Source: Candidatus Omnitrophota bacterium
GTDB lineage: Bacteria; Omnitrophota; Omnitrophia; Omnitrophales; Aquincolibacteriaceae
Length of the DNA stretch: 64,000 nt
Reading direction: 5' to 3'
Assembly (NCBI GenBank): GCA_043732705.1
Contig: JAYTHE010000043.1
Coordinates: 9,067-73,066 of the forward strand
Below are positions 669 through 19,424 of this stretch, in pieces. Position 1 is the stretch's first letter, and the number at the start of each line of letters is the position of its first letter. Made by a program: the position numbers and the translations under genes. The notes beneath the pieces are model-generated. The model was not told the DNA's origin and searched no databases. It saw only the letters and a list, made by a program, of their open reading frames with translations.

Positions 669-1086
669 CTGTGCCGGGCTCTTTTTTTCCATGCAAGGTA
701 AGTAAGCTTGACCCCAGCATCCTGCACAAGCTGTGATTTTCCGCCAAGAGTTTTTCAACAGATTGAGAGTCGGCTTTTTTGGAGTCACGCAACAGACAAA
801 GCCAATACTCGCTTTCATTTGCAGACTTCAAAGCGTAAGTAAAAAAGTTAGCAAAATCCTTCCGTGACCCGCTGCCTTTAGCCTCGATTATATTTGCCCC
901 AATGGAAGTGGCAGAGCGTAGTAATTGTTTTGTAATGATTTGAGACAAGAAATCCTTTTGAAGGGCTTCTAAAAAACGGATAATTTGAATCGAAAAAGAA
1001 TAGCTCTTTTCTTGCATTAAGGTTTTGGGTCTTGGGCTGTAGTTTTGAGCTTGAAGATTTAAGTTTTGGGTTCTTTGAATGTCCAT
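661..1086 (-). CDS. four-helix-bundle protein of the 23S rRNA intervening-sequence family
   Basis: The translation (FSIQIIRFLEALQKD...ATSIGANIIEAKGSGSRKDFANFFTYALKSANESEYWL) matches the IVS four-helix-bundle family pattern. The true start may be the internal Met near 1017, because the upstream 69 nt overlap the neighbouring gene. Confidence 0.75.
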   Translation of the reverse strand: MDIQRTQNLNLQAQNYSPRPKTLMQEKSYSFSIQIIRFLEALQKDFLSQIITKQLLRSATSIGANIIEAKGSGSRKDFANFFTYALKSANESEYWLCLLRDSKKADSQSVEKLLAENHSLCRMLGSSLLTLHGKKEPGTAL

Positions 1087-2962: not shown

Positions 2963-3043
2963 GTGAAAAATAAATTGTTACTACATAAATATGTGGCTGC
3001 GCTTCTCATCGTGTGTCTACTTGTGCAAGACGCTGCATTTGCA
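2963..3043 (+). other. predicted signal peptide of the giant protein (cleavage after AFA)
   Basis: The sequence MKNKLLLHKYVAALLIVCLLVQDAAFA-HG has a basic n-region, a hydrophobic core and an AxA site. Confidence 0.6.
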
Positions 3044-6000
3044 CATGGCGGGCCACGAACTACGAGTCACGAGCCACGAAAAAAAACGTGGTCCGTGGAA
3101 CGTGGAGCGAATTTATTTAATATTTCATCTCAGCTTGGATCTATCGAGGAATCTTTCGAAGGCACCAACGGCAAAAAAATTATTTTCATTCAAGATGCGC
3201 ATGACTCGCTTGAGGCGCAGGAAAATATCACAAGGCTCGTCACGCGTTTTGTTAAGCAAGGCGTGCAAACAGTTTTTGAAGAAGGCTATGCGGGACCGGT
3301 TCCTACCGACGCTTATTTTGGCGATATCAAAGACTCAAAGATTAAACACAAGGTAAGTTTTTACTATCTGGATCACTTAAAGCTTGGCGGAGCTGAATAC
3401 GCGCATATTAACCGGCGAAGCCGGTTGGCCGGAGACCCGAGGCCCGAGGCCCGAGAGCATAAAGCAGCGAATGCTGACTGGCAGTTAATTGGAGCGGATG
3501 ATTTGCCGGCCTATCTTGAAAATGTGCGGGCTTTCGCGGATTCGGAGAAAACACGCGAAGAAATCGAAGAAAATCTGCGGGCAATATTCCGAGAGCTTGC
3601 AAATATAGCCAAAGCGAAGTTTTCAAGATCCGCACAAAGCTGGATCCGCGACCGGCTGCGTTATGAAAACAACCGTCTGACGGTTTCGGATTATATCCAG
3701 CGAACATTGGCGCCTTTTGATTTGAATGATCAGCGCAAATGGCCGCTGCTTTTTGCCGTTCAAGCAACAAGCGCTCAAAAGGAAAATGCCGAGGCGCTTT
3801 TAAGGGGTGCGAACCCGCGTGAAATTTTAAACGAGCTCGCCGCGGCGGAAACGAAGCTGGAAGCGCGCTATTTTCAAAGCGCGGAAGAAATACAGCTATG
3901 GCATTTTTTGCGGGCAGCACGAAGGCTGGCCAAGCTTTCGGAGTTACGGCTCAATCCTTCAGACCTGAATCAGCTTAAAACTGAGATGTCCGCCCTTGAT
4001 ACGGAAAAGCTCGCCGCATGGATCGCGAAAGAAAAAAGCTCGCCCGTTGTGCTTTCCAAAAAATGGGAAAGCCAAATTAAATCCGCACTGCGTTTTTATG
4101 AGCTTGCCGCGATTCGCGAGCAAGCCGTTGAGAAAACTTTGTTAGACTGGAGACGAGAGACCGGAGACAAAAGACCAACATCCGAGATGGGAGCGGGGTC
4201 TGTCCCAAGCGAAGCGCGTGGACTGACCCCTATGGTTTCTAGTCACGACCAAAACGGAACGGCCGTTTTGGTATTCGGCGGATTTCACAAAGAGGGAATT
4301 ACCGGCATGCTTCGCAAATATGGATTTTCGTATTGCGTTATCACGCCAAAGATCTCAGAGCCTTCGCTGAAACATCAAAAGCTTTATCGTGAGGCGATGC
4401 TTTCTAAGGGCCTTCGGCCTTCGGCCGCCGGGCTTGCGGCGCATGCCGCGCGCGCTCCCGATCTCTTTTTAACCATTCCGCTGTCCGCTGCCCGCACCGA
4501 AATCCGCGGACTTGCCGAATTTGCTACGCGCTCCGAAATTCGCGCGCTATCTCTCCCCGAATTTTCCTTTCAGGCCGAAAAGCGGCTTGAAGAAATTAAG
4601 CGCTCCGAAGCACGTGCAAGTGAAAAAATGGAAGATTGGATTCATAGCATTGAAAACGAATTGCGCAAGCCGAAGCCCGATTCAGCCGCGCTCGAGAAAA
4701 TAGAGGCGGCGGCGCATGCATGGGTTTTGCAGCTTAAAGGTTTAGACGGAGCAGATGAGCTGTTAAGTGACGAATATTTTGGAGCTGATTATAGAAAAGT
4801 TTCCACCGAAGAGCGCCAATGGATGCGTGTATTTTTAGCGGCGGCGGTGGTTATTTTGGCAATGGATGATCCCGATTTGAAGCAATTGCGGAAGCTGGAT
4901 GATTTAATTGGGCAATTTAATCAAAAATATAATCAAAGCAACTGGGGCTGGGCGCTGGTGCTTTTTATGAAGCTGGCGCTGAACCGGTTTGTGGTGGAAG
5001 GGCCCAAGCTTCGCACTTTGCTTAAATTGTACGGACGCGGCACGCGTCTTCCCGGTGAGTACAAATATAAAATGGCGGCCTTCACTTTACTTTTACTTGG
5101 CATGCATCTCGGGCATGACGCGGATCCGACCGACGGCCCCGATTTAAATCCGTCCAGTAGTTTAGGGCTTGCTGTTGAGACTTTAAAACATCCCGAAGTG
5201 TTAAATGAAATCCCCGAACCAATGCGCGAGGGAATTTTGGAAGCGTTGCGTGTTGGCTTGACGCATTACGTGGTTTCATCTTGGTTTTGGTGGAAAATAG
5301 GCGCACCCAAACTTAAAAAACAGCTTATTCAAAATCGTGATTTAATCCGAAGTGTGTTGGCTGAAATGAAAAGCCGTTCCGCGCAGCCGGCCGCGATTTT
5401 CGTTTTTGGACGGAAACGATGGATGAATAGGCGTTTTTTTGAAAGTGATTTAAGAAAACAACGGCCTGTCGCAGCATGGGATGAGATTTTGCTTCATCCG
5501 TTTAAGGCGGAGAATTGGAGCCCGTTTCTTCTTTTTGTTCAAGCAAGAACGTCATTTGGTTTACCTGCGCCGAACGAGACAAAGCAGCACGCAACGGACG
5601 CCGCTTATGCTCGAATTATGGATCAACTTGAGTCCTTATCAGATGAACCGGAACAACGCTCCGAAGCACGGGCACGTGAAAAACAGCCGTCGATTTTCTC
5701 AATTTTTCATCCTTGGCATGCGTGGTATTCGCTTGCATGGACAGTTGCCACAGGCAAGTGGATGTTTTATTTAGATGGTCTTCGAAAGGAGCTTGCGAAA
5801 AACAAATATGCCGCACCTGATTGGCTGGGATGGGTTCCAGACATTGCGATTACAGCTTTTGCGCTTAACTTTCTTGTTTTTTTTCTTACCGGGTTATTTG
5901 TTACAAAAGGAACAGAGCTTCGAAATGACCATCAGGAAAAAGTCGCGCTCTGTTTTGTGTTCGGAGCATTTATGTTCGTGGTTTTGGGAGAGTTTTTAAT

Positions 6001-9000
6001 TCCGCCGCCGTTAAATTATTTTGACTGGAAAGATATCGGCGCCTATTCAATTGGACTTGCTATGGCGATTACTGTTCGAGACATTGGACTGGCAAGGCTT
6101 GCGAAGAAGATCTTTTTTAAAGAAACAAAAAGTACGCGCTCCGAAATGCGGGAAGAAAAAAATGACCCACTACGAGCTGGGGAAGTTCTCCAGAAAATAT
6201 TTCGTGAAGGGACATGGCAGCCTCAAGAACTCGGAATGCTTTTCCCTGATCTCGATGATTCAGAAAAATTTCGTTTGCCCGCATTTATTTTTGAGGCGCA
6301 ACTATTCATCAAAACTCAAAACGCAAATCTCTGGGAATATCTTTCGCGTTTGCTCGTGGTTTACGTTGGTCCGGCTGGCCCCTGGCTTTATCTTTACGAC
6401 GCTGCAACCCTTTCGGTGGACCTTTTTATAATGAGCGGTGTTTTTCTCGTACTTGCCTGGAGAAGCTTCAGTCAAATCGCTTCGCTTGCGCAAACGCGCA
6501 TTCTTTTCCTCAAAGCGTTCAAGAGCGCGCATGACGCCATTATAAAAGAGCGGCAAGTCACAGCTGATTTAACTGATACAGGGGATTCGAGCGGACGCTC
6601 AGAGTTTCGGATGCCGCAGGAGCAAGGCCTTGCGAATTTAACGTTGGCGATTAATGTCATGGATTTGGGCGCGGAGATTCAGCCGGACGGGAAAATAATT
6701 TATAAAAACAGTTTTGAAAAACTGAAACAGCTGCTGCCAGTTTTGCAAGGCATGGGTATTCGAAAAATTTATCTCTATGGGCTGGCGGAAGTAAGTGAAA
6801 TTTCAAAAAAGATTCATACGGTTCCGGACGAAGGCTTGCATTTTATTTCGGGCGGTAAAGCAACTGTGATGGTTGAGACTTACACTGTGCGTCGCGAAGA
6901 AGCCGGAGAAAATGAAAAAATAAAATTAGATGATGCGCACGGCAATATTTTTTCAATTGCCGACTTGCGGAAAATAAACCCACAGTACGCGAGTAGTCCC
7001 AGTCGCGCTGAAAAAGAATTTAAAAGCCTAACAAGACTCGCGCATTCGTTGGATATCAAAATAACCGCGGATTTTATTTCTTGGCTTGCGCCCGATGCGA
7101 TCAATGAAAAGAATTATCGCCAAACATTTTATTACGAACTCTCCGAGGTGAAAAACCAGGAATTCCGTGATCAGCCGGATGAGGCAAAAAAACAAGCGTG
7201 GATTAATCAAGAGCTAGGAAGAAAAGAAGACGGCAAATTGGTTCACGGATCTTTTTTTGCGCTCCGCATTACAGAAAACGGGGCTGAGCGTGTGATCATG
7301 GTTAAACATTTGACTCCGTGGGGGGCAAATGCCGATCAAGTCATCCCTAATCCTTTTCACCCCGATTTAAAGACTTATTACAAAAATGCGCTCGAGAGAT
7401 TAATTGACCGCGGAGTGGATGAAGTGCGCGTGGATATCGGCCATATGCTGCTCAAACAAAATATGCGTGGATATTTCGAAGAATTGCGCTCCAAAGGCAT
7501 GAATCTTGAAGATTGGCTGAAGGCGAACAGCTTCGGCCTTCGCAAAAATGAAAAATTTGAAAGCTGGTTTGACCGGCAAGGCGATATGTGGCATGAGGTG
7601 GTTGATCATGCCAAGACTTATGCTATTGGTCATGGAAAGCGCATTCGTTTTACGATGGAAACGTATAGTCCGGGAGAGAAGCAAACACTTTTTGCGCAAG
7701 GTGTTAATGCAAGCTACAACAAATCCATTTTAGATACGTACGGAGAAATTGCGAAGGGGGATTTGCGCGCGTACAAGTTTGATGATCCCGTGAAACATGT
7801 TTTTCACGATCGCCCTTGGGCTCTTTCTTTTTTAACCAACTTTGACCAGCTCTCGTTGGCCAAGTTTGGCGGCCCATCCCAAGCCGGATTTATGTTGCTT
7901 GTTGCTCTTTCCCATTTGGGCGTTCCGTCTATGATCGACTTGCGGGATCTGATGCTGCATCACGGCCAAATCGCTAAAATTGTAGGGGGAACCTGGGACG
8001 CGAATGACTCGCATCATCATGCTTTTGCCGGCGAAAGCGATTTTAAAATGTATGGCGGCACTGAGGCTTTAATCTCCGAGGTTGGAAATGCCGCTCTCGG
8101 AAAAGTTCTCAAAGATTTCCAAAACATTCACCCCGGAAAAAAAGAACGCTATTTTGATATTTTGAACAATGAAAAACGCGAACGTTATTTTAGCTTGGGC
8201 TGGCTGAATGAAGATGGCGATTGGGTCATTGTCTTGTTGGATTTTTGGGCGCATGACGACAGATTGGGAGAAAAGAAAGAATTCGTCAAAGTAGGAATGC
8301 CCCCGAGCACTCCGGAAACCCATTTTAAATATCAAGATTATGATGCGGTTGATTCGGAAGGGAGAAGTCTCGCGTGGGGGCGATGGTTGGGAGAAGGCGG
8401 CGATCCGGAAGTCGTTTCCGTTCATTTTGACGAAGCCGAAAAAATGGCGCCTTATAAAATTATTAAGCTTAAACGAAAAAAAGAAGCGCCGCATTTGCCT
8501 GCGCCCGCAGCGGTTGAATTAACCCGCGAAACCATGCTTAGGCATCCTTTTCCGGAAGCGCGTTTGCGCGAGTTGGAAAAAATTCTCAGCGAGTCGGCTT
8601 ACGCGGACTTGCGCGAAGATGCGATTTTCTTCGCGCTGATGGATGAAGATTTTTTTGTGCGCGCCTATGCCGCGAATATTCTTGCGGACAAGGTAACAAA
8701 TTATAAATATGAATCGCAGCCCGAAGCCTGGATCAAACATTTTATAAATCCGCTTATGTCACTTGACGCGTTAAATGAAAAACGCATTCCCGGTCTGCTT
8801 CATTTTGACCCGCGCCGCGCCGCGCGCAATAAGCGCAATGCGCTGCTCTATGCTTTTGCCCGGCTGAGAGAAAAAAATGGAAGTGACCGGCCGGTATATC
8901 GCCGTACAGTTACCGCGCTTTTTCAAAACACACTCGAAACGCAGGCGCGCGAGTGGCAGTCGGAAAATGAATCCAAGGTTACCAAAATCTTAGCGGAGGA

Positions 9001-12000
9001 AGGCCTTAAAATGGGGGTTGGAACGGCTGAGCCGCTTAATTTAGCGGAATTGCTGCGCCTTATTTATCTGCGGCATTTACAAAAACTCAAAGTTTTGGAA
9101 AAAAATGAGAAGGACAAATTTCATTGGGTGACTACCGCTTTACAGAAAATGGTTCCCCCCAAGTCCGCGGCGGGCAAAGTTATTTTTTCTCCCGCCCGCT
9201 CCGAAATGCGCACGTTGCGCGAACAAATTTTAGAAAATGATTTTCTGAGAGAAAAATTTACCGATGAGCAGCTTGTTCTTTCTAAGCCTTTGTCTGATCA
9301 TAAAAATCATGGGCAAATTTATCCGGGAAGAAAACAAGCTGATGGAAGCCAGTTATTTATTAAAATTAACCCGCATGCGCCAGGCGATGACCAATATGAC
9401 AGTGCCAATAAGCATCTTTTGAGAGAAGCCAAGACGCTTGTTGAGTTAAACCAAAAAGGAGTCGCAGGAATTCCTAAGCTGATCCAAATCGGCATAACGG
9501 CAGGCGGACAGATTTGGCTTCGCATGGCAGGCATTCCTGATGCCCAGATGTTTATTACTGACGCCTGGGACAGTCTCGACATAGAAGACCAACTTGAACT
9601 TTTAGCACAAATGGCAGATATCATTGCAAGTGTCCACGTGCAAGGATTTTTGCATATGGATTTGAAGCCCAAAAACTTTCTATTTGCTCGGGGAAGCACC
9701 GGCAAACCACAGGCAATGTTGATTGATTTTGGATCAGCCGCAAAATTAGGTGAATATATTCGCCATCACGGGTCGGAGCTATTTGCTCCGCCCGAAATCA
9801 ATGAGTTTACGCCCGCCAAAACCCCTTTTGATGTTTTTAGTTTTGGAAGAACGTTAGAGTCTGTTTTTGGAATTTTTGCAAAACAGCACCTAACGGAATA
9901 TTTTAAAAAGAACGCGACAGAAAAAAATTTTTCTTACTTAGAAAAGTATGGGCTAGGTCTTTTAATTGAAGGCATGGTTTTAAAAGAGCCGAGCAAGCGC
10001 CTGCCAAAAACTTTTTTCGAAGTCGCGTTGATTTTGCGTGATATTCGCGGGCGTCTTTTGAATGAAAAGCCTTTGCCTTTCTGGTTTCGTAAAAAAATCG
10101 AAATCGATCAATGGCTAAAAGGTAAAGGGTATCGCGATTTTGACCGTGTCATTGCGTATCCGTTTGCGATTTCGCGCTCTGAAATGCGAACGCAAAATAA
10201 AAAAGACGAAGCCGTGCGACGCAGTGCGATATTGCGTGCGTTTAAAGAAGGTAAAATGGACGGCAGACAATGGCCTTCCGAAGCGCGATTAATTCTGGAT
10301 CTTTTTTTGCGAGGACGTTTTTCCGGGCGCGTCGCCAAAGAAATATTGGAAAAATTTTCGACTCGGACTCCGCGTCCCGAAGGCTTAACAACGCTTTTGC
10401 TTTCCGCCCAAGTTGCGTTAGAAAAAAATTTAGATGCAAAGTGGATTCCGGTGCTCGTGGCGATAAATCATTTTCCACGCAGCGGGAAAGACGTCCGGGC
10501 GCGGATAAAAGAGTACGAAAAAAATATTTATCCGAAAGCGGCACCTAAAAAGCTCAAAGAAGCCGCGGAAACGGTTTATGACCGGAGCCGGGCTCCAGAA
10601 TCAATTGCTGAAAAGGGCTTGATCGCCGGATTGAGCCATTCCACGGAAGGCTTGCATGCTGTTTTGGCGTTCGATGAAACAATGCGGCAACTCAGCGGGG
10701 AACCCAGACCGGCGATGGTAGATGTTCTCTTGGGCCTCGACCAACTAAAAAGCCGTCGGGGCGGATTGAGCGAAGAAGTCAAATTCCTTTCCGGCTGGCT
10801 GCTATTACCAAAAAATGAAATGCGGCAGCGGCTTGTACTTTGGAAAACGGCCGAGATGATGGAGGTCACAGGGCTTGAATATTTGTTGATCGATGATTTT
10901 TTACGGCGCGGCGCGAAGTCACAGCAAATCAAAGCTTATGTCTATTTATTCCAGGCGGTGACACCGGCAGCGGATGAAAGCCAAGCGCATGCGTATCGTG
11001 CGTGGATTACGGGCGTTTTGCATGAGGTTTCCACCGTCTACCATGATCGTTTCGCCAAACATTTTAAATTTAGAGAAACTACGGCAGCAACCTGGCCGGA
11101 AGCCGCGCGGAAAAAAATGCAGCGCGCCGCCGCTTATCTTTGGAATGAAATTGAAAGCCTGCCGCCGCTGCCGCCCAATGGGGAGTATCGACAGCAAATT
11201 GAGGATTTAAAACAGCTTTTAATTCTTGCGGCCAATCTGGGAGCCTCAAGCTATGTTTGGAGGATGATCGACGCGCTTTCGCCTTGGAAGCACTTTTCGG
11301 TTTTATCTGCTTTTGCCTATATGTTTGATGATGATGGTCTTCTGGATAAGGCTACCGCAAGGAAAGCAGTGCATGATTTTTTTGATGGATATGGCAAGCG
11401 CCGCGCTGAACAAGCGGATGCGTTTTTGGACCGCGTTAAAAAGTTAGATGTTTTGCAGGGCGGGTCGGTAAAAAGCATCGCGAACTATTTTAAGAAAAAC
11501 GATTCGCCTTTATTGGATGAAGGCGAAACGCGGCGCTGGCTGGAACTTATCAAGTTATTGTACGAAGGAGAAGGAAGTCTGTCGAAACAAAAAACTCCCG
11601 CGCGGTGGAAAGCAAAAGCGACAAAATTCACGCATGAAGTTACTCAAAAATTTAAAATAGATATGGCCCCCTATTATTCCGGACTGAGCGGTGTGATTAA
11701 ATACACCATTTATGAAGATGGAGAGCGCTTGGCGCTTACGATTAAAATAAAATTGCCGAACCATCCGGGACGCCCGCTCGTCCTGTTAATGGCTGCTAAC
11801 ACCGAAGTCATGTTTAATGAATGGTCCTTGCTGGCCGCGCTTTATCTTGATTTACAGAATAACCGGCGGCCGGACGCATTTGACGGCGATGATGGCGATT
11901 CTTTCGCCCGCTCCGAAATGCGGAAGGAAATGTATGGTCTTTCGCGTGAAGAAATTTCCCGCATTTTGGCTTCGCATAACCCGGCTGGAATTAAAAAAGT

Positions 12001-15000
12001 TGTGGATGACATGGAAATGGCGGTTCGTCAGCTCTCAGCTTTGGGTGCGCACCCGGCTGCGCGCGCATGGATAAAATATTTGCGCATGATGCGTGAAGGT
12101 AAAATCAATGCGGGCCATATTTTTATGCTAAAGCAGTCAGAATTATCGGAAAATGCTTTCCGACCGTTTGCGTCGAATTTCTGGAAAATAAAACTGCTGG
12201 ACGCTTTTTTTAATCAGCATCCGATTTTCTTTCCCCCTTTTCTTGGTGGAGCACAGCGCTTAATTGGGATTGCTGACTTTTGGCCCGGCCTTTTGCCAGC
12301 AGAAATGGGCGTGGAAGCGGCCAAAGAATTAAATGGCTTTATAGTTTGGTATTTATTTGAGCTTCATGACGGCCAGGCAATTCAATGGCCGGTCAATTTC
12401 CCTCTGCGGGAAATAATTCTGCAGTCTTATCTCCGGTTTTTGTCGGGGCTTTCGGGAGAAGTTATGCAAAACTTTACTCAAGAGCTGAACGAAGCTGAAT
12501 TCAGAGCGATCGTGACGCAAGCTTTGGGCGGTCTTATTGCCAGTCTCCAAGACATTGCCAAAGCGATAAAAACTGATTTGGACGAAAAGCAAAAACTGAC
12601 CGATTTGGATCGCGGAAAATTTGTGGAGTTGCTTGAAAGCGGCCACTATGGAAGCGCGCTTGCCCTGCTCCGCCAAAACGAGGCCCTTTGGAAATATTAT
12701 TTTAAATGGATGCGGCGGCTTGATTACGGCTATATGAATGCCCTGCGGTTGATGCAGCAGCTTTTGCGGGCAGGATGGGGCGAAGAGGAATATGTCCGCG
12801 AAACTGAAAGTTATTTGCATAAGTTTATTCATCTGATTGAGCCGCGCTTGATTCGCAGAATGCTGGCGCGCAATATTCTTTTTCAATTCGCGTTGTATCA
12901 ATCCATTCGCTTTAAGCTGTGGTTTGATGATGGTGTGGGCGGATATGGGGAGATTTATAATGACAACTTGCAGTTTCAATATAATTTCCTGCACTCGAGA
13001 GAAAAGACGATTCAAAAAATTATGACCCGCAAGGCTCTTAAAGAGCTGGAAGACATTGCCGCGCGTACTGCGAAGGGCCGCTATCTTCGGCTTGTTCAAG
13101 AGCTTATCCGAGCGAGATTTCTACAGCGCTCTGAAATGCGGGAACCGTTAAAAGCGTGGGTTGAGCAAGCGCTGGATGAACGGGCCGTTGTCGACCCCTC
13201 GAAAAGAGCGGAACTTTTGCGTATCTTTTCGATTATGGCCGCTGATTATGAAGAGGCAGTGCTTGATAAAAAATTTGGAATGGCACCAACAACAGTCGAA
13301 AGTTATTTACATGCTTTTGTGAAAGAAGCGCTCGGAAACCTTGATGCGGATGCGAAATGGATTGAAAAGCTTGCGCAGGGCGCACGGCTCATTTTAAAAA
13401 AGAAACTTTATCCGCATGGCTTTGTCGCCTATCCGCTGCCGGCAATTTTATCAGCTTTGCGGGAACTTAAAAAGCAGCCCGCGGAAGCGGATGCGTGGTT
13501 TCAAGCGGTTGATGAGACCCTGGCAATAAATCCAAGAATTAATCCGCAGGAAATTTTAGATGCCGCGATTGCCGCGGCAGGCGATATGGCTATATTCAAA
13601 CGCGAACTGCAAATGGTTCGTTCCGAAGCGCGAGAAATCAAATTAATTTTGCAGGGCTTCCGGCAAAACACGGAAGTTAGGGTGCTGTTCAAGCCGGAAG
13701 ATTCGGGCGATGTAAAAGCGATTCTGATCAAAGCAGGATTTGGACGTGAAAAGAAAGGCGCGCTGCGCTTGGCCGATATCGGCGAAGTTTTATTAGACGG
13801 GATTAATTTAGGAAAATTTTGGGACACAGCAGGAATTTTAAGAAACTCACAAAATATTATTGTGCGCCACAAAGATTACGAAGAGCCCCAGAAGTCCAAA
13901 CCTGTTTCAAGCGAATCTCCAAAAACAATTTTGGCGGCGGTAAAAACAGAGCAAAAAGGCCTGAGAATTTTTGCGAAGCCTTCATCGCGTCGACCAGAAA
14001 AAATAACATTTTCCTTGAAGCTTCCGCTGGATGATTTGATGACGCAGCGTTTGGAAAATTATGCCGAATGGTTCGCAACGCCAGAAGCGGAGCGTGCCGA
14101 GAAACCGCGCAACCAATTAAAATTCATTTCACTGGTAAAAGAAATAAAAACCGAGACTATTCGGATTGACGAACTTGCCACCGCTGCGGCAGAGGAAGAA
14201 AAGGGGCTGGAGGATGAACCGGGCAAGGAAACCAGCTATGTTGGATCAAATGCCAATGTTAGTGCGAAGGAAAAAGCGAAGCCCGTTGTTAAAGAATACC
14301 GGACTTTTGAAATTACATGGAATGCTCGCGAGGCAGGGGATGTTGATACCTTAAAAGGCATTCTCTATCAATTGGGTTATCAAAGCTCAATAATTCGGCT
14401 TCGATACCATTTGAATTTCGAAGTAAAGCCTGTCGCGGACACATTTGATCCGATCAATAACGGTGATGTCTTAACGGCTGTTTTGAATTCTGCCCGCAAC
14501 CGCGATGATGATCGTGAAGGTGATTTGGCTTTGGAGTCTTACACGCAGGAAATGCTTGCGAAACTAAAAATCAAAACCCCTGAAGAGCTGGCCGCTTTAC
14601 GCGCCGAGCGTGAAGAGGAGCTGATAGGCAAAATCGGCCTTAAGAGCGCTGAGATGGAAGCTTTTATTTCAGGAGATTTTCAGCCAGATAATCGGAATGC
14701 GAGTCTTTTGCACGAAGTTTGGAAAAAATATTTAGATGAGGGCATGCGCACCGCAATAATTACTTATTTTGGCTTGCAAGGAAATATCCCGGCGACCAAC
14801 AAAATTCATTTGGCCGCAGAGCTTAAAATGACAGCAACCGAATCCATCGGCAAACTAAGTATGGCAGCAGCTTATTTAAAAAATGCTTACCAGGATGGCA
14901 AATTGCCAAAAGCAAAGCCTGTCCCCAAAATAGTTGCGGTGAATCGGGAAGATGAAAAAAGCATTGTGCCACCGGAAAGTCCGATAACCACAAAAGAAGC

Positions 15001-18000
15001 GAAAGATATCAAGCCCGCGCCTGAAGTTCTTGCTCCGGCCGACCAAGTTTCTGTGTCGGAAGCCCTGACAGCTGTGCTAGAAACTAAACCTGCAGCCGAA
15101 GTCCCTGCGTCGGCGGGGGAGCAGGCAGAAGCATCAACGCGAGAACGGGAACCACGGCCCTATCTAACAATGTTTAAAACCGTTTGTCAAAAATTTCAGT
15201 TTCAAGCTTTTTCAAGACAGGAACTCTATGCAGAATTTTCCAATAAATCTAAATCTGTTATTGATGGGAGGCTTCAATCTTTTCTGACAGCGGGGTTAAT
15301 TGAAAAAGTTGAGCAAGTCAAAACTAAGCCCAGGATTTCGAGCTCAGAGAAAGCGTATAAACTAAAAGAATTTAGGGCGGATCAAACGGAGGCGCTTGAA
15401 TTCGCATTGGAAAGTTGGACTGATAAATATGACGAAAAGCTCGCTAAGTCGCTTATTGCGCGAGTGTTTTCTATTCAAAAAAAAGAACACGAAATTCTGC
15501 GCCCCGGAAAACCCAAGGAGGGAGATTTTTCACACACCGAAGGCTTTGTCGCTTTCGTTGAGTGGCTGTGGGAAGAATGGAAGCCATGGATTTCTTTGAA
15601 GCAGCCGGTTAAATTTGCGGCTCTAGGAGCGCGACTCATTAACAGCTCCAAATGGTTGCTTCCGCATCTTATGCAAAGGCTCGAAGCAAGCGGCTTGGCC
15701 GCCATAGTTTCATCTGCGGCGATTGGAATACACAATTGGATCACCATAACAAATTTTTCAGGCTGGAAGAAGGACCGTGTGAAGACAGCTCTTGAAGGAT
15801 ATCGCAAGCATCGCGATTTTCGGCGGCTGGCGGTAGAAATCAAAAATATTTTGATACAGGAAGAGCAGCCGTCCGTTGTGTCGCCACAAATGATTTTACC
15901 CGGATTCAAAGAAGTGTTTTCTCCCGCGCTCAGCGGACAGAAAAGCAAGCAGATGTCATTGCGAAAAGTAATGGAAGCGGCCGAAGTTGTTCGCCAAGAA
16001 AACGGGGATGGTTTTCTTGTAAGCACAAAAACCGTTGCAAAGCAATTGGGCGTTGCGCAAGGAGTGCTTGTCCGATTTGCAAACGATAATTCAATTCGAC
16101 TCAGCCGATTGCATATTTACACAAGGGAACCTGGCCTGAGGGGGCAACGCGAAAAAGTCCTACAAGAAATAAAGGCCGCGGCCGACCGCTTACGGGCGGA
16201 AAACCCACAGCATCAATATATGCCCTTTGCCGAAGAGGATTTAATTTTAGAAATGGGACGTTTTAAATCTATGAGTGGATTTGCATTCGAAATGAATTTT
16301 CTTAAAATTAAAGATCTCGCTTCTTATGGGGTTTTTAAAGCAAACACAAATTCGAATGACCTTCGGGAATGGTTAGATCGATATGCTGAGGTTTTGTTTG
16401 GCAAAAAAATATCAGCTGAGGCCATAAACGAAATTATGACTGTTTGGACTCCTCACAAAAATCACATAGGACAGAGCTGGAAAAAACGAATATCCCCCGA
16501 AACCGAAAAATATCTGGCGGCGCAGCAAAAATGGATACAGGAGAAACTGAAGCGCCGTGATAAGCAGCGCGCTGAATATATTCGCAGTTTAATAGATGAA
16601 GCGGTAAATGAGTATCATCTGGCGCAAAGCCAGCCTGGTTCTCCTCGTTTGAGGAAAGCAAAGTTTCGGCTTCTTGCTCTCGATCCTTTTCATCCCGCGT
16701 TGAGGGGAAAGAAAATTTCGGAAGTGGCGCCCAAAGCACCCAAGCGAGCAGATATGGGAAATAAAACGAAAAAGACAGCACCTATATTCAAACCTAATCC
16801 GATTTATGAAACGCAAGCGAAGCTGGGCGTGATCATTACGAGTCCAGCCGACATCGATTGGGAAAATCCAACGGAAGCATTACCGATTTTCAAGGAAGAC
16901 GAAGAGCTGGCTACGACAACGGAACGCGGGTATTTAAATTTAACTAAAATTCTTCCCGGTGCTTCGCTTGTGATCACCAACTTAGGGATTAAAGGAAAGC
17001 ACAAAGTATTTATTAAAAGCGGCGGCGCTGAAAACAAAAAATACAAGTTGGTGCTCCGCATTGAAGGTGTGAACGAAGAAAAAGCATTCTGGATTGGACG
17101 CTACCGGGGAAAGAGTTTGTTTGGTGTCGCTCTCGGTAAAAATCTGGACAAAGAAACTTTTGAGCTTTTAACTTTGGAAGAATGGAATGCGCGTTTTTTT
17201 GCTGAGCTTTTAACAAAGCCCGACGAGCTTTCATGGAGCCAAGCCATCGAGCCAAGCGGAAAATTTGAGGGTGTTGATCTTGGAGCGCTTAATAATTCCG
17301 GATACGGCAAAGTTTGGCTGGAGAAAAGTGTTGAGGCCGAAATTAAAATTGGCGGCAGACGGGGATATTCAGGCTATACTCCAAGACTTGTTTCGATTAC
17401 CGAACAAGACCAGCTATTAAAACTAGGAATTTTACTTACCAGCCCCGACAAAACAAAATCCGAAACCGTAGATCTGTATTTATCAGATTTGAAAGCAACG
17501 GCCCAGGGCAGTGGTTTAAAGGCGGCCACGACTGTTACCTATCGGAAACCTTCCGCGCGAGAAGAAGCTGTCGTTAATGAAATAAAGTCTGGTGAAACAA
17601 AAACCAAGCCACGCTCCGAAATGCGAGAAATCCAAAAAAATAATCCAGCGATTATGATTTGGCCAATGCAAAAAGTCGGAACAGTTTTAATTTCACGCGC
17701 CGAATTGCGGAATCTTCCCGAAGAAAATTTTCTGGCGCTTTATAAAACCGCCTACACACGTTCCGAGCTGCGTTTTTTAGTTTATGGCGAGGATTCATTA
17801 ACTGACTCCGAAGACCCCCGCGCTCAGATGCTCACCACGATTCCCAACGGGAGGGTACGCGTCAACTTTATCGGTGGTAACGAACCCAAAGCTTTGATGC
17901 GGGTTCCGGTTTCTGAACGAGCGGTGATCATAACGGGAAGAAGCGAGGCTCGCTTTTTAACTCTGCGCAAAGGAGTTTCGCGAGTAGCGGCTCAAGGCCA

Positions 18001-18148
18001 AGCCGCAATGTTGGCCTTAGGGCTTTTGTGGACAGTGAGCGATACTCCACTTAGTCAGAAGAATGGTTTTTTAAGCGATCCTTCCGGGCGTTTTACTGAA
18101 ATGACTCGAGCCTTTTTGTCCCAGCTTGTTTTTGCCTCAGCCGCTTAA
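2963..18148 (+). CDS. giant multidomain membrane-anchored protein (5061 aa) containing a Ser/Thr protein-kinase domain and recurrent RSE[MA]R motifs
   Basis: There is no stop codon for 15,186 nt. The start is GTG 2963, with in-frame alternatives TTG 2975 and GTG 2993. It lies downstream of a 290-bp AT-rich leader. A signal peptide, TM cluster, GH13-like motifs and kinase motifs are present. Codon usage matches the neighbouring genes. A perfect 15-bp hairpin follows the TAA stop. Confidence 0.85.
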   Translation: MKNKLLLHKYVAALLIVCLLVQDAAFAHGGPRTTSHEPRKKTWSVERGANLFNISSQLGSIEESFEGTNGKKIIFIQDAHDSLEAQENITRLVTRFVKQGVQTVFEEGYAGPVPTDAYFGDIKDSKIKHKVSFYYLDHLKLGGAEYAHINRRSRLAGDPRPEAREHKAANADWQLIGADDLPAYLENVRAFADSEKTREEIEENLRAIFRELANIAKAKFSRSAQSWIRDRLRYENNRLTVSDYIQRTLAPFDLNDQRKWPLLFAVQATSAQKENAEALLRGANPREILNELAAAETKLEARYFQSAEEIQLWHFLRAARRLAKLSELRLNPSDLNQLKTEMSALDTEKLAAWIAKEKSSPVVLSKKWESQIKSALRFYELAAIREQAVEKTLLDWRRETGDKRPTSEMGAGSVPSEARGLTPMVSSHDQNGTAVLVFGGFHKEGITGMLRKYGFSYCVITPKISEPSLKHQKLYREAMLSKGLRPSAAGLAAHAARAPDLFLTIPLSAARTEIRGLAEFATRSEIRALSLPEFSFQAEKRLEEIKRSEARASEKMEDWIHSIENELRKPKPDSAALEKIEAAAHAWVLQLKGLDGADELLSDEYFGADYRKVSTEERQWMRVFLAAAVVILAMDDPDLKQLRKLDDLIGQFNQKYNQSNWGWALVLFMKLALNRFVVEGPKLRTLLKLYGRGTRLPGEYKYKMAAFTLLLLGMHLGHDADPTDGPDLNPSSSLGLAVETLKHPEVLNEIPEPMREGILEALRVGLTHYVVSSWFWWKIGAPKLKKQLIQNRDLIRSVLAEMKSRSAQPAAIFVFGRKRWMNRRFFESDLRKQRPVAAWDEILLHPFKAENWSPFLLFVQARTSFGLPAPNETKQHATDAAYARIMDQLESLSDEPEQRSEARAREKQPSIFSIFHPWHAWYSLAWTVATGKWMFYLDGLRKELAKNKYAAPDWLGWVPDIAITAFALNFLVFFLTGLFVTKGTELRNDHQEKVALCFVFGAFMFVVLGEFLIPPPLNYFDWKDIGAYSIGLAMAITVRDIGLARLAKKIFFKETKSTRSEMREEKNDPLRAGEVLQKIFREGTWQPQELGMLFPDLDDSEKFRLPAFIFEAQLFIKTQNANLWEYLSRLLVVYVGPAGPWLYLYDAATLSVDLFIMSGVFLVLAWRSFSQIASLAQTRILFLKAFKSAHDAIIKERQVTADLTDTGDSSGRSEFRMPQEQGLANLTLAINVMDLGAEIQPDGKIIYKNSFEKLKQLLPVLQGMGIRKIYLYGLAEVSEISKKIHTVPDEGLHFISGGKATVMVETYTVRREEAGENEKIKLDDAHGNIFSIADLRKINPQYASSPSRAEKEFKSLTRLAHSLDIKITADFISWLAPDAINEKNYRQTFYYELSEVKNQEFRDQPDEAKKQAWINQELGRKEDGKLVHGSFFALRITENGAERVIMVKHLTPWGANADQVIPNPFHPDLKTYYKNALERLIDRGVDEVRVDIGHMLLKQNMRGYFEELRSKGMNLEDWLKANSFGLRKNEKFESWFDRQGDMWHEVVDHAKTYAIGHGKRIRFTMETYSPGEKQTLFAQGVNASYNKSILDTYGEIAKGDLRAYKFDDPVKHVFHDRPWALSFLTNFDQLSLAKFGGPSQAGFMLLVALSHLGVPSMIDLRDLMLHHGQIAKIVGGTWDANDSHHHAFAGESDFKMYGGTEALISEVGNAALGKVLKDFQNIHPGKKERYFDILNNEKRERYFSLGWLNEDGDWVIVLLDFWAHDDRLGEKKEFVKVGMPPSTPETHFKYQDYDAVDSEGRSLAWGRWLGEGGDPEVVSVHFDEAEKMAPYKIIKLKRKKEAPHLPAPAAVELTRETMLRHPFPEARLRELEKILSESAYADLREDAIFFALMDEDFFVRAYAANILADKVTNYKYESQPEAWIKHFINPLMSLDALNEKRIPGLLHFDPRRAARNKRNALLYAFARLREKNGSDRPVYRRTVTALFQNTLETQAREWQSENESKVTKILAEEGLKMGVGTAEPLNLAELLRLIYLRHLQKLKVLEKNEKDKFHWVTTALQKMVPPKSAAGKVIFSPARSEMRTLREQILENDFLREKFTDEQLVLSKPLSDHKNHGQIYPGRKQADGSQLFIKINPHAPGDDQYDSANKHLLREAKTLVELNQKGVAGIPKLIQIGITAGGQIWLRMAGIPDAQMFITDAWDSLDIEDQLELLAQMADIIASVHVQGFLHMDLKPKNFLFARGSTGKPQAMLIDFGSAAKLGEYIRHHGSELFAPPEINEFTPAKTPFDVFSFGRTLESVFGIFAKQHLTEYFKKNATEKNFSYLEKYGLGLLIEGMVLKEPSKRLPKTFFEVALILRDIRGRLLNEKPLPFWFRKKIEIDQWLKGKGYRDFDRVIAYPFAISRSEMRTQNKKDEAVRRSAILRAFKEGKMDGRQWPSEARLILDLFLRGRFSGRVAKEILEKFSTRTPRPEGLTTLLLSAQVALEKNLDAKWIPVLVAINHFPRSGKDVRARIKEYEKNIYPKAAPKKLKEAAETVYDRSRAPESIAEKGLIAGLSHSTEGLHAVLAFDETMRQLSGEPRPAMVDVLLGLDQLKSRRGGLSEEVKFLSGWLLLPKNEMRQRLVLWKTAEMMEVTGLEYLLIDDFLRRGAKSQQIKAYVYLFQAVTPAADESQAHAYRAWITGVLHEVSTVYHDRFAKHFKFRETTAATWPEAARKKMQRAAAYLWNEIESLPPLPPNGEYRQQIEDLKQLLILAANLGASSYVWRMIDALSPWKHFSVLSAFAYMFDDDGLLDKATARKAVHDFFDGYGKRRAEQADAFLDRVKKLDVLQGGSVKSIANYFKKNDSPLLDEGETRRWLELIKLLYEGEGSLSKQKTPARWKAKATKFTHEVTQKFKIDMAPYYSGLSGVIKYTIYEDGERLALTIKIKLPNHPGRPLVLLMAANTEVMFNEWSLLAALYLDLQNNRRPDAFDGDDGDSFARSEMRKEMYGLSREEISRILASHNPAGIKKVVDDMEMAVRQLSALGAHPAARAWIKYLRMMREGKINAGHIFMLKQSELSENAFRPFASNFWKIKLLDAFFNQHPIFFPPFLGGAQRLIGIADFWPGLLPAEMGVEAAKELNGFIVWYLFELHDGQAIQWPVNFPLREIILQSYLRFLSGLSGEVMQNFTQELNEAEFRAIVTQALGGLIASLQDIAKAIKTDLDEKQKLTDLDRGKFVELLESGHYGSALALLRQNEALWKYYFKWMRRLDYGYMNALRLMQQLLRAGWGEEEYVRETESYLHKFIHLIEPRLIRRMLARNILFQFALYQSIRFKLWFDDGVGGYGEIYNDNLQFQYNFLHSREKTIQKIMTRKALKELEDIAARTAKGRYLRLVQELIRARFLQRSEMREPLKAWVEQALDERAVVDPSKRAELLRIFSIMAADYEEAVLDKKFGMAPTTVESYLHAFVKEALGNLDADAKWIEKLAQGARLILKKKLYPHGFVAYPLPAILSALRELKKQPAEADAWFQAVDETLAINPRINPQEILDAAIAAAGDMAIFKRELQMVRSEAREIKLILQGFRQNTEVRVLFKPEDSGDVKAILIKAGFGREKKGALRLADIGEVLLDGINLGKFWDTAGILRNSQNIIVRHKDYEEPQKSKPVSSESPKTILAAVKTEQKGLRIFAKPSSRRPEKITFSLKLPLDDLMTQRLENYAEWFATPEAERAEKPRNQLKFISLVKEIKTETIRIDELATAAAEEEKGLEDEPGKETSYVGSNANVSAKEKAKPVVKEYRTFEITWNAREAGDVDTLKGILYQLGYQSSIIRLRYHLNFEVKPVADTFDPINNGDVLTAVLNSARNRDDDREGDLALESYTQEMLAKLKIKTPEELAALRAEREEELIGKIGLKSAEMEAFISGDFQPDNRNASLLHEVWKKYLDEGMRTAIITYFGLQGNIPATNKIHLAAELKMTATESIGKLSMAAAYLKNAYQDGKLPKAKPVPKIVAVNREDEKSIVPPESPITTKEAKDIKPAPEVLAPADQVSVSEALTAVLETKPAAEVPASAGEQAEASTREREPRPYLTMFKTVCQKFQFQAFSRQELYAEFSNKSKSVIDGRLQSFLTAGLIEKVEQVKTKPRISSSEKAYKLKEFRADQTEALEFALESWTDKYDEKLAKSLIARVFSIQKKEHEILRPGKPKEGDFSHTEGFVAFVEWLWEEWKPWISLKQPVKFAALGARLINSSKWLLPHLMQRLEASGLAAIVSSAAIGIHNWITITNFSGWKKDRVKTALEGYRKHRDFRRLAVEIKNILIQEEQPSVVSPQMILPGFKEVFSPALSGQKSKQMSLRKVMEAAEVVRQENGDGFLVSTKTVAKQLGVAQGVLVRFANDNSIRLSRLHIYTREPGLRGQREKVLQEIKAAADRLRAENPQHQYMPFAEEDLILEMGRFKSMSGFAFEMNFLKIKDLASYGVFKANTNSNDLREWLDRYAEVLFGKKISAEAINEIMTVWTPHKNHIGQSWKKRISPETEKYLAAQQKWIQEKLKRRDKQRAEYIRSLIDEAVNEYHLAQSQPGSPRLRKAKFRLLALDPFHPALRGKKISEVAPKAPKRADMGNKTKKTAPIFKPNPIYETQAKLGVIITSPADIDWENPTEALPIFKEDEELATTTERGYLNLTKILPGASLVITNLGIKGKHKVFIKSGGAENKKYKLVLRIEGVNEEKAFWIGRYRGKSLFGVALGKNLDKETFELLTLEEWNARFFAELLTKPDELSWSQAIEPSGKFEGVDLGALNNSGYGKVWLEKSVEAEIKIGGRRGYSGYTPRLVSITEQDQLLKLGILLTSPDKTKSETVDLYLSDLKATAQGSGLKAATTVTYRKPSAREEAVVNEIKSGETKTKPRSEMREIQKNNPAIMIWPMQKVGTVLISRAELRNLPEENFLALYKTAYTRSELRFLVYGEDSLTDSEDPRAQMLTTIPNGRVRVNFIGGNEPKALMRVPVSERAVIITGRSEARFLTLRKGVSRVAAQGQAAMLALGLLWTVSDTPLSQKNGFLSDPSGRFTEMTRAFLSQLVFASAA
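4819..6465 (+). other. transmembrane helix cluster of the giant protein (at least 4 strong TM segments)
   Basis: Hydrophobic stretches are IAITAFALNFLVFFLTGLFV, VALCFVFGAFMFVVLGEFLI, IGAYSIGLAMAITV, LLVVYVGPAGPWLYLY and LFIMSGVFLVLAW. There are also weaker ones such as VFLAAAVVILAM. Confidence 0.6.
6930..7990 (+). other. alpha-amylase superfamily (GH13/GH-H clan)-like TIM-barrel segment
   Basis: The pattern FSIADLRKINPQY..EFKSLTRLAHSLDIKITADFI resembles Y.xDY.IDP.YGT.EFK.LV.AH..GIKVILD. GVDEVRVDIGHML resembles GVDGFRxDxxxH (region II; R, D and H present). FTMETY carries a Glu. FLTNFDQ resembles FVxNHD (His replaced by Phe). Confidence 0.4.
8560..8700 (+). other. HEAT/PBS-lyase-like repeat
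   Basis: The sequence LRELEKILSESAYADLREDAIFFALMDEDFFVRAYAANILADK fits the HEAT-repeat pattern. Confidence 0.4.
9281..10060 (+). other. eukaryotic-like Ser/Thr protein kinase catalytic domain inside the giant protein
   Basis: There is a Gly-rich stretch HGQIYPGRK, a LFIKI (VAIK-like) Lys, a catalytic loop HMDLKPKNFLF, LIDFGSA (DFG) and ELFAPPE (APE). Confidence 0.8.
14905..15165 (+). other. low-complexity P/E/K/A-rich linker
   Basis: The sequence KLPKAKPVPKIVAV...PESPITTKEAKDIKPAPEVLAPADQVS...KPAAEVPASAGEQAEAS is low-complexity. Confidence 0.5.
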
Positions 18149-18259: not shown

Positions 18260-18326
18260 GCGCGCTCTTCTATAGATCATTTCTCGGGTCTCGGGCCTCC
18301 GGCCCTGGGCCTTGCCGGAGGCAAAA

Positions 18327-19424
18327 ATGGGTTTTAAATGCGGAATTGTAGGGCTGCCGAATGTGGGCAAGTCCACGATTTTCAATGCGATTAATAAAGA
18401 GTCACGTGCACAGGCGGCAAATTATCCGTTTTGCACGATTGAACCGAACAAGGGCATTGTTCCTGTTCCCGATCATCGCCTTGAAACTCTTACCAAGCTG
18501 ATCAAGCCGCAATCCAAAGTTCCGACCACGGTTGAATTTTATGATATCGCGGGCCTTGTGAAAGGCGCGGCCGAAGGCGAAGGCCTGGGCAATAAATTCT
18601 TAACGCATATCCGTGAAGTCGAAGCCATCATGCATGTGGTGCGCTGTTTTGAAGACCCGAATATTTTGCATGTTTCGGGCAGCGTGAATCCCGCGCGCGA
18701 CATTGAAGTGATCGATACCGAACTTTGTTTAAAAGATCTCGAAACCATCGGCACGCGTTTTACAAAAAATGACAAGCTTGCGCGCTCAGGTGACAAAGAA
18801 GCGCTTGCGGTTCAGCCGACCTTAGAAAAAATTAAAAAAGCGCTCGAAGCCGGAACACCGCTTCGCAAACTTGAGCTTACCGCCGAAGAACAGCTCGCCG
18901 TCAAAGAATGCAGCTTTCTAACTTTAAAGCCCATTTTTTATTGCGCGAATGTGGCCGAGAGTGATTTGCCAAAGGGCGGGCCGCTTGTTGAAGAGGTTCG
19001 CAAAATTGCCGCGGCCGAAGGCGCGAAGGTCGTTGTGATTTCCGGAAAAGTAGAATCCGAAATTATTGAATTGTCCGAAGCCGAACAAAAAGATTTTTTG
19101 GAAAGCTTGGGATTGGAAGAACCCGGCATGCATAAGCTCATCCGCTGCGGATATGAAACCTTGAACTTAATCACTTATCTTACGGCCGGCGAAAAAGAAG
19201 TTCGCGCGTGGACCATTATCAGAGGCATGACCGCGCCCCAAGCGGCCGGCGTAATTCACAGTGATTTTGAACGTGGATTTATACGCGCTGAAGTCATGAG
19301 CTATGAAGACTTGGTTGCCTGCGGCTCGGAAAAAGCCGTCAAAGAGAAAGGTCTTTTGCGCGTCGAAGGTAAGGAATATATAGTGAAAGACGGCGACGTG
19401 ATGTTGTTTCGGTTCAGTGTTTAG
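18327..19424 (+). CDS. ychF: ribosome-binding ATPase YchF (Obg-family GTPase)
   Basis: The protein begins [21 protein letters not shown] and ends with a TGS domain ([11 protein letters not shown]). A GGAGG RBS lies 6 nt upstream. The ORF track extends to TTG 18312. Confidence 0.9.

Follow-up and report, generated by a model that had tools for sequence, protein, structure and literature searches.

Giant proteins of the uncultured phylum Omnitrophota, including the 'Archaeovorins', are portrayed in two preprints (bioRxiv 10.1101/2023.11.21.568195 and 10.64898/2026.06.07.730766) as very long, membrane-associated and multi-enzyme chains with little conservation, whose cleavage has been proposed, and one of the two calls the cleavage points unknown. 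Whether these proteins act as single chains or as many products is an explicitly open question in the field, and the lack of known cleavage points has blocked their structure-based analysis. Here, a stretch of 64,000 nucleotides (nt) from a Candidatus Omnitrophota bacterium (contig JAYTHE010000043.1, positions 9,067 to 73,066; hereafter, the window) was analysed regarding a pentapeptide, R-[S/A]-E-Φ-R (Φ being V, M, L, A or I), that recurs along the 5061-amino-acid (aa) product of an open reading frame (ORF) with a GTG start at 2963-18148 (+). This product is a member of an Omnitrophota family of giant proteins with conserved N-terminal and C-terminal modules (N-module and C-module), and comes from the same phylum as, while being far smaller than, the 30,000-aa class in focus in the preprints. 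The motif is a real and highly non-random hallmark of this very large family, and constitutes a first concrete candidate for the cutting or recombination points of Omnitrophota giants.

MARTX toxins, found in Vibrio and relatives, resemble these giants in being very large, with conserved termini, a mosaic of shuffled middle modules and short sites in unstructured linkers. In these toxins a cysteine protease domain within the protein frees the modules by cutting after Leu, whereas neither such a domain nor a Leu-type site was seen in the giants, which exhibit the strict R-[S/A]-E-Φ-R instead, have unrelated termini, and whose cleavage is putative. Viral polyproteins (potyviral NIa/TEV, picornaviral 3C) likewise display one short and strict consensus at each junction, with lineage-specific drift; a single protease, itself part of the polyprotein, reads these sites, while in the giants the enzyme is only a candidate. 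The giants further differ from them in being a cellular, chromosomal bacterial family, in the candidate fold, in a synonymous codon bias, and in having module-exchange breakpoints at the junction. Finally, integron attC/cassette sites share with the motif that a short repeated site flanks exchangeable units, that breakpoints fall on the site and that it has a weak inverted-repeat character (CCGC...GCGG); on the contrary, the motif lies inside one ORF, is frame-locked, translated and peptide-selected, and shows no hairpin covariation. Neither a junction motif nor a TIKI or TraB domain was found by term searches of the two preprints (10.1101/2023.11.21.568195, 10.64898/2026.06.07.730766), and a full-text literature search for RSEMR, RSEAR and RSExR gave unrelated matches only, among the matches listed. 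Within the searchable literature we found no description of the motif and the family architecture.

A first-pass annotation of the window had listed copies of RSEMR, RSEAR, RSEIR, RTEIR, RSEFR, RSELR and PSEAR, all of which are present and in frame where it placed them; the degenerate T-S-E-M that it started at 4188 is actually at nt 4178-4189, and one copy, RAELR at aa 4912 (17696-17710), had been missed. Its view that the recurrence is highly non-random is fully borne out, RSExR showing 13 in-frame copies and RSEMR 6, against 0.099 and 0.0021, respectively, expected from the composition of the protein. Besides RSExR, the giant contains RTEIR, RAELR and two PSEAR; RSExR is its top enriched gapped k-mer, and xR follows every RSE tripeptide. 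A six-frame scan of the window detected RSExR in no other real ORF, the single extra match falling in a stop-ridden frame. At the nucleotide level, the 14-mer CGCTCYGAAATGCG is confined to the six RSEMR sites; allowing up to two mismatches, the window yields 9 matches, all of them in-frame motif copies, where 1.76 are expected, and the other 49 kb contain zero copies of the motif oligonucleotide. BLASTP of the giant against itself returned zero internal repeats, and the copies are therefore not remnants of segmental duplication, in agreement with the first-pass annotation.

The first-pass annotation implied that the motif was restricted to one protein, which does not hold. Giants flanking ychF in related metagenome-assembled genomes (MAGs) carry RSExR (10 copies in the 3296 aa of L001a), and their sharing with the window protein is mosaic only, being limited to the N-module, the C-module and isolated internal modules. 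Using the N-module (window aa ~54-505), 80 metagenomic loci were retrieved; their 69 non-redundant giants (160,111 aa) exhibit 268 RSExR copies versus 4.2 expected, while the remaining ORFs of these loci show 0.19 per 1000 aa, with matches mostly in further giant ORFs. With a hidden Markov model of the N-module, the family was found to comprise at least 8,355 cluster representatives, of which 2,555 score E<=1e-30; the module is N-terminal in every case, and the proteins range from 380 to 6,726 aa. Family statistics were drawn from the best 142 representatives (422,135 aa), where RSExR occurs 701 times versus 11.7 expected (60-fold) and RAExR 199 times versus 15.2, the enrichment of the latter being 13-15-fold across data sets. 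Three or more motif copies are found in 106 of the 117 proteins longer than 1500 aa, and copy number correlates with length (r = 0.76). The general architecture consists of a signal/anchor segment, the conserved N-module, a variable string of enzyme-sized modules, and the conserved C-module.

Giants of the family adjoin ychF (18312-19424 in the window) in many Omnitrophota. The giant lies upstream of this gene in the window, giants are found on either side of it in L001, and they come downstream of it in L002-L012; their content past the first motif is entirely different. Two giants of ~3,800 aa with an N-module match, in L149 (ORF from 9806) and L150 (ORF from 9824), have almost no RSExR; they are enriched in GFGA / SGFG (9 and 5 copies), reminiscent of FG-type repeats.

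The specificity of the motif was examined position by position. Position 1 is Arg, KSExR being at 1.3-1.9 times background; position 2 is Ser or Ala, with RTExR at ~2 times background and Gly, Val, Leu, Lys and Glu at or below it (RLExR and REExR are about background among the 142 representatives); position 3 is Glu, RSDxR remaining at 0.4-1.9 times background; position 4 is V, M, L, A or I; and position 5 is Arg, RSExK being at 0.8-0.9 times background. PSExR is unenriched in the family, and the PSEAR at aa 2438 of the window giant (10274-10288) may thus be a chance or decayed copy of this degenerate form. Some members are dominated by RAExR, as L120 (ten copies of RAEVR), P0136 (no RSExR versus 11 RAExR) and P0063 (1 versus 15). 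Residue x is homogenised within proteins, the probability of finding the same x in two copies being 0.385 versus 0.195 when pooled, a value reached in 0/1000 shuffles.

The motif occupies polar linkers that separate modules, and its placement is retained at two sites, behind the N-module and ahead of the C-module. Eight orthologous giants encoded downstream of ychF share a conserved N-terminal region that runs out into a variable, Pro-rich linker; an aligned [RK][ST]E[FAVLI]R column comes next, past which the sequences are unrelated. A copy is found 385-560 aa past the QDAHDS sequence of the N-module in 56 of 61 giants. Stand-alone N-module proteins (431-446 aa) terminate at the point corresponding to RTEIR and RSEIR of the window giant, and at their C-terminus the motif is absent or degraded. 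Such proteins were detected in other Omnitrophota, namely P0011 (L081 10001-11296) and P0005 (L083 168-1508), the former having a Peptidase_Mx-like and an ATP-grasp gene as neighbours; the giant ORF scanned on its 461-kb contig lacks RSExR. At the other end, most of 29 full-length giants show an aligned R[SA]ExR column directly ahead of the C-module (~170-175 aa). Between these termini, Pfam domains in L128 follow one another between copies in the order DUF218, APH, DUF4922, and B12-binding plus radical SAM; three other giants gave no Pfam match at all. Sequences flanking the motif are less hydrophobic than random positions (0.269 versus 0.333, P = 8e-42), the upstream flank being rich in S, P, T, A and G and the downstream one in E, D, P and T, and the median spacing of copies is 293 aa. 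As regards the flexibility of the linkers, residues 467-537 of the N-module model show a predicted local distance difference test (pLDDT) score below 50; a single-sequence AF2 prediction of aa 2040-2450, comprising the kinase module and both flanking motifs, was uninformative (pLDDT 35).

The copies of the window giant, all on the + strand, can be followed along this architecture. RTEIR at aa 511 (4493-4507) is the first one past the N-module, at the point where the stand-alone homologues end, and is followed by RSEIR at aa 523 (4529-4543), RSEAR at aa 547 (4601-4615), and RSEAR at aa 899 (5657-5671), the latter in an acidic linker (DEPEQ-RSEAR). Next are RSEMR at aa 1059 (6137-6151) and RSEFR at aa 1212 (6596-6610), which marks the exact start of a 557-aa homology block common to giant L001b. 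RSEMR copies at aa 2079 (9197-9211) and aa 2405 (10175-10189) form, respectively, the upstream and downstream borders of the kinase module, and another at aa 2983 (11909-11923) is again placed in an acidic linker (GDDGDSFA-RSEMR). RSEMR at aa 3389 (13127-13141) and RSEAR at aa 3553 (13619-13633) are in apparently helical contexts. RSEMR at aa 4884 (17612-17626) occupies the R[SA]ExR column ahead of the C-module in most full-length members, and closes a module (16820-17611, +) homologous to L001a aa 323-621 with 37% identity. Three copies are found inside the C-module (17627-18145, +; ~175 aa, ending ...LVFASAA-COOH, with a family consensus ...VIS.AA): RAELR at aa 4912 (CGC GCC GAA TTG CGC), RSELR at aa 4933 (17759-17773), whose column is RSEIR or RSETR in three other members, and RSEAR at aa 4993 (17939-17953), encoded by AGA AGC GAG GCT CGC and the sole copy using the AGY/AGR codon families.

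Within the C-module of some lineages, RSExR repeats at two or three semi-conserved internal positions. Degenerate PTSEM and PSEAR (4178-4219, +; PSEAR at 4205) are held by a lineage-specific insertion loop of the N-module (4163-4255, aa ~401-431), modelled with low confidence and missing from most homologues.

Homology between shuffled modules starts and stops at the motif. Among 169 internal shared-module high-scoring segment pairs from the 142 representatives, 27% of starts and 37% of ends fall within 10 aa of a copy, compared with 4.6% at random, and only 12 of the 169 hold a copy well inside. In proteins P0130 (aa 1832) and P0142 (aa 3609) a shared block opens in both cases with RSELR, upstream of which they are unrelated, and closes at the next RSELR. 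Similarly, modules X and Y are adjacent across RSEDR in P0088 (X-RSEDR-Y), and separated in P0134 (X-RSEAR-~930 aa-RSEDR-Y). At the DNA level, the left half of the junction between modules B and C of P0130 corresponds to the end of B in P0142 and its right half to the start of C in P0142, the switch taking place at the 15-nt motif. Breakpoints for gain and loss of units therefore fall on the motif, as observed for cassette sites.

As to whether selection acts on the peptide or on the nucleic acid, the first-pass annotation had argued for at least the former; both levels carry signal, with the peptide dominant. At the orthologous first junction, third codon positions vary (TCG/TCT/TCA/TCC/ACC and CGG/CGT/CGC/CGA/AAA) while R-S/T-E-Φ-R is kept. 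In the coding frame of giant genes, 252 occurrences of the 9-mer CGY-TCN-GAR were counted, as opposed to 9-15 for any of the other frames or strands, where 9.6 are expected; out-of-frame and antisense occurrences, just as the search for the 14-mer elsewhere in the window, are thus at background or nil. Asp and Lys substitutions, one base away, are also near background. Considering that (i) enrichment is limited to the coding frame and (ii) third positions vary at the orthologous junction with the peptide kept, peptide-level selection must dominate. A genome-wide DNA repeat, such as an uptake sequence, a Chi-like site or a repetitive extragenic palindrome (REP), does not account for the motif, which, in the window and in giant genes, is not over-represented across genes, frames and strands.

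Nonetheless, codon choice at the motif is strongly biased. The codon claims of the first-pass annotation are correct, and in the window giant CGY-TCY-GAA is used in 10 of 13 copies while the codon usage of the gene predicts 10% (binomial P = 2.7e-8). Across the family, the first Arg is CGY in 86% (background 39%), Ser is TCC in 58% (21%), the third base of x tends to be G (GTG 75% versus 29%; GCG 71% versus 34%), the last Arg is CGG in 40% (24%) with AGR at about background rate, and the base preceding the motif is C in 47%. The resulting consensus is C CGY TCC GAR NNG CGG, the 14-nt core described earlier being one instance of it. Codon-pair context was tested and rejected as the cause; so was copy age, the bias being equally strong at the ancient first site rather than a property of young copies, as well as a generic effect of conserved sites, invariant N-module Arg being CGY in 51% and Val GTG in 23%. 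Only the lack of AGY serine codons finds a simple explanation, namely codon-class inertia, as it is also seen at invariant Ser. A CCGC/GCGG hairpin fits the marginal base preferences, but no covariation is detected beyond heterogeneity in third-position G+C content, the G3-C12 pair is almost never seen, the hairpin appears in just 27% of minimum-free-energy structures, and the stability gain over synonymous recodings is 1.3 kcal/mol. Residue x as an internal start codon, NTG being common, is not favoured, since the same preference for G is displayed by GCG/ACG and no Shine-Dalgarno-like sequence precedes the motif. The motif bears a putative resemblance to the G(-10)Y(-1)G(+1) transcriptional pause consensus. 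The motif-specific synonymous bias is real, candidate causes being ancestry or drive by module copy-and-paste, a co-translational reader, and RNA or DNA structure.

Strong site-specific synonymous preferences also occur at individual invariant residues of the N-module (alignment columns such as 70, 73, 110 and 117), across sequences only ~35% identical: a Val position uses GTY in 93%, a Glu position GAA in 82% and an Ala position GCG in 65%. Such constraint may extend, in giant genes, beyond the motif.

Tentatively, and with slightly less than even confidence, we interpret R-[S/A]-E-Φ-R as an inter-module recognition motif read by a processing endopeptidase that cuts the giant into modules. 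Among the three hypotheses of the first-pass annotation (polyprotein processing sites, kinase sites and a DNA-level signal) the first is the best fit, given that the motif lies between modules, in polar linkers, and keeps its place behind the N-module and ahead of the C-module. The strictness of the motif, with Arg over Lys and Glu over Asp, together with its linker position, suggests a single macromolecular reader. The peptide would be read in an extended conformation by a sequence-specific endopeptidase, small position 2 and hydrophobic position 4 being then on the face of the strand opposite to R-E-R, and the giant precursor would be cut into its modules in the manner of polyprotein processing. 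The motif could in addition double as a joint for in-frame gain, loss and exchange of modules, a role suggested by the recurrence, dozens of times per genome and in a single frame, of the same ~15-nt coding sequence.

The most obvious candidate enzyme would be the invariant N-terminal hydrolase module of the family itself (aa ~54-505 of the window giant; 3122-4477, +), a candidate TIKI/EreA/ChaN/TraB-like hydrolase. In 61 sequences its invariant residues are, in window numbering, Q77-D-A-H80-D-S, E106-E107-G, E145, (H148), R151 and G439-G-F-H442. The TIKI superfamily is characterised by a 2His/2Glu catalytic motif, and includes true endopeptidases as Tiki and RRSP, the latter being a TIKI-fold endopeptidase that occurs in MARTX toxins (PMC6254334). 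The N-module pattern of acid-x-His, a Glu 26-27 residues on and a distal G-x-x-His resembles that motif, and its spacing that of RRSP, E3900-x-H3902...E3930...H4030 (PMC6254334), both similarities being of sequence pattern and not of superposed structures. The N-module is thus probably a TIKI/EreA-like hydrolase, while its activity on the motif is pure conjecture. It differs from the TIKI/TraB/PrgY/EreA/ChaN superfamily in a ~220-residue helical insert and in the lack of a Pfam or PDB profile match.

Several observations weigh against proteolytic processing, which is deduced from motif anatomy and unproven. Regarding the motif, copies at aa 4912, 4933 and 4993 are inside the C-module, those at aa 3389 and 3553 appear helical rather than in linkers, and, contrary to the two terminal junctions, motif positions are not kept in ~30%-identical homologous blocks elsewhere. 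Regarding the enzyme, N-module sequence profiles gave only chance-level matches against Pfam and PDB, its AF2 model is moderate (pLDDT 65), and a Foldseek search of this model against PDB was not significant, the best probability being 0.47, for EreC. Hydropathy-based topology would place the N-module and copies 511-1059 across the membrane from copies 1212 onward, which makes a single compartment-bound protease, or the N-module as the protease, awkward. The predicted crossing is due to the signal-peptide-like N-terminus together with three transmembrane-like segments (5843-6457, +; aa 961-979, 995-1013 and 1147-1165), detected by hydropathy only and restricted to two short modules between copies 899, 1059 and 1212. 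Finally, a pure peptide signal leaves the strong synonymous bias unexplained.

This last aspect would be accommodated by a dual-role cassette system, where the ~15-nt element is at once a recombination joint and a separation site, acted on by the TIKI-like N-module or co-translationally, the bias being the imprint of its nucleic-acid half; we consider this version unlikely. Equally unlikely in our estimation is that the motif is a docking site that is never cleaved, by which linkers would bind one partner (a chaperone, a scaffold, the secretion machinery, or the own N- or C-module) with the giant remaining intact. A strict, short, linker-located and peptide-selected motif whose copy number scales with modules fits docking equally well, copies inside the C-module could be intramolecular pseudo-ligands, and short linear motifs typically show the kind of positional turnover seen in the ~30%-identical blocks. 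On the contrary, stand-alone N-modules lack or degrade the C-terminal motif, suggesting that it is needed only when something is attached downstream, and favouring a separator over a generic docking tag; besides, docking leaves the synonymous bias unexplained, as cleavage does.

The motif might also be primarily a nucleic-acid signal, C-CGY-TCC-GAR-NNG-CGG acting as an in-frame recombination joint, through microhomology or as a recombinase site having CCGC/GCGG arms, the peptide being a tolerated by-product. Such a DNA-level signal, already raised in the first-pass annotation, seems to us rather improbable in this exclusive form. The motif-specific synonymous bias, explained neither by codon-pair context nor by a conserved-site effect and equal at the ancient first site, speaks for it, as do module homology switching exactly at the motif, in one case at the DNA level, and the homogenised x residue. 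Yet enrichment is exclusive to the coding frame, third positions vary at the orthologous junction while the peptide is kept, and changes from Glu to Asp (GAR to GAY) and from Arg to Lys, single-base changes that microhomology should tolerate, are near background, with AGR for the last Arg at about background rate. Neither a clean hairpin covariation nor an RNA stability gain above 1.3 kcal/mol supports it.

Translation is the only process that naturally reads peptide and codons together while being blind to the final compartment. A nascent R-S-E-Φ-R with its codons could make the ribosome pause in a programmed manner, or skip a peptide bond, between modules, and each module could then fold or be released before the next one is made. 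Such a signal would explain peptide selection, frame-locking, synonymous bias and the copies on both predicted sides of the membrane. Nevertheless, the two Arg positions prefer different codons (CGY versus CGG), without a simple rule of tRNA abundance or accuracy, and no alternative-frame ORFs follow the motif. We know of no precedent for an RSExR-type peptide as a co-translational signal, and judge this explanation quite improbable.

It had also been proposed that the motif serves the Ser/Thr kinase embedded in the giant, either as a phosphorylation site, Ser being the acceptor, or for docking, and Ser is indeed commonest at position 2, with occasional Thr. This proposal fails, and is now very improbable, since entire lineages have Ala in place of Ser (RAExR shows 13-15-fold enrichment and is the sole form in some proteins, while RTExR is at ~2-fold) and kinase-free giants carry the motif, L087, L100 and L121 showing 7-10 copies without a Pfam kinase. 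A trivial compositional or oligonucleotide bias, or a residue of segmental duplication, is practically dismissed by a 60-130-fold enrichment over composition in three independent data sets, by the motif missing from other window genes, and by the lack of out-of-frame or antisense enrichment and of internal repeats.

Under the favoured processing reading, the family-wide motif provides a testable map of candidate cut sites. It offers a principled basis on which thousands of giants without annotation could be divided into modules, so as to predict their structures and annotate them, and gives a handle on giant-gene evolution through module gain and loss at the motif. The analysis also delimits a family, with at least 8,355 cluster representatives, whose N-terminal module is a candidate TIKI-like hydrolase, and exposes a strong, unexplained synonymous-codon constraint tied to a five-residue peptide. 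If the dual-role version were true, Omnitrophota would build, diversify and dispense large enzyme sets from single genes.

The window giant itself, identical to protein P0030 of a public collection, presents the features of an Omnitrophota giant protein, with 5061 aa, a kinase module, a predicted signal peptide and transmembrane-like segments, and an Omnitrophota-like YchF neighbour. Its signal-peptide-like N-terminus (2963-3049, +) combines a positively charged n-region with a hydrophobic core (hydropathy peak at aa 11-29) and a predicted cleavage between AFA and HG. The protein kinase domain (Pfam Pkinase, aa 2116-2301; 9308-9865, +), contained in the 326-aa segment between copies 2079 and 2405, is the sole domain recognised by Pfam and NCBIfam in the giant. 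Word-index homologue searches with aa 2050-3600 and aa 4600-5061 gave no match, nor did a scan of genome contigs with its central region, and Rfam detected no RNA family in the window. The surrounding genes are ordinary chromosomal ones, encoding YchF, ResB/CcsA, CtaA, an M17 aminopeptidase, RsmB and an ABC-F protein. The adjoining YchF shares 93% identity with its counterpart in a MAG of an uncultured bacterium, and the hits that follow (62-73%) include several Candidatus Omnitrophota MAGs.

The 557-aa module in common with L001b (6596-8266; 31% identity) is without a Pfam match, and is possibly of glycoside-hydrolase or TIM-barrel type, by impression only. Upstream of the giant gene, a divergent ORF of 537 aa at 1059-2672 (-) also lacks a Pfam match. 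Cysteine is almost absent, amounting to 0.1% in the window giant and 0.14% over the 422,135 aa of family members, despite the presence in some of them of radical-SAM modules, which need Cys.

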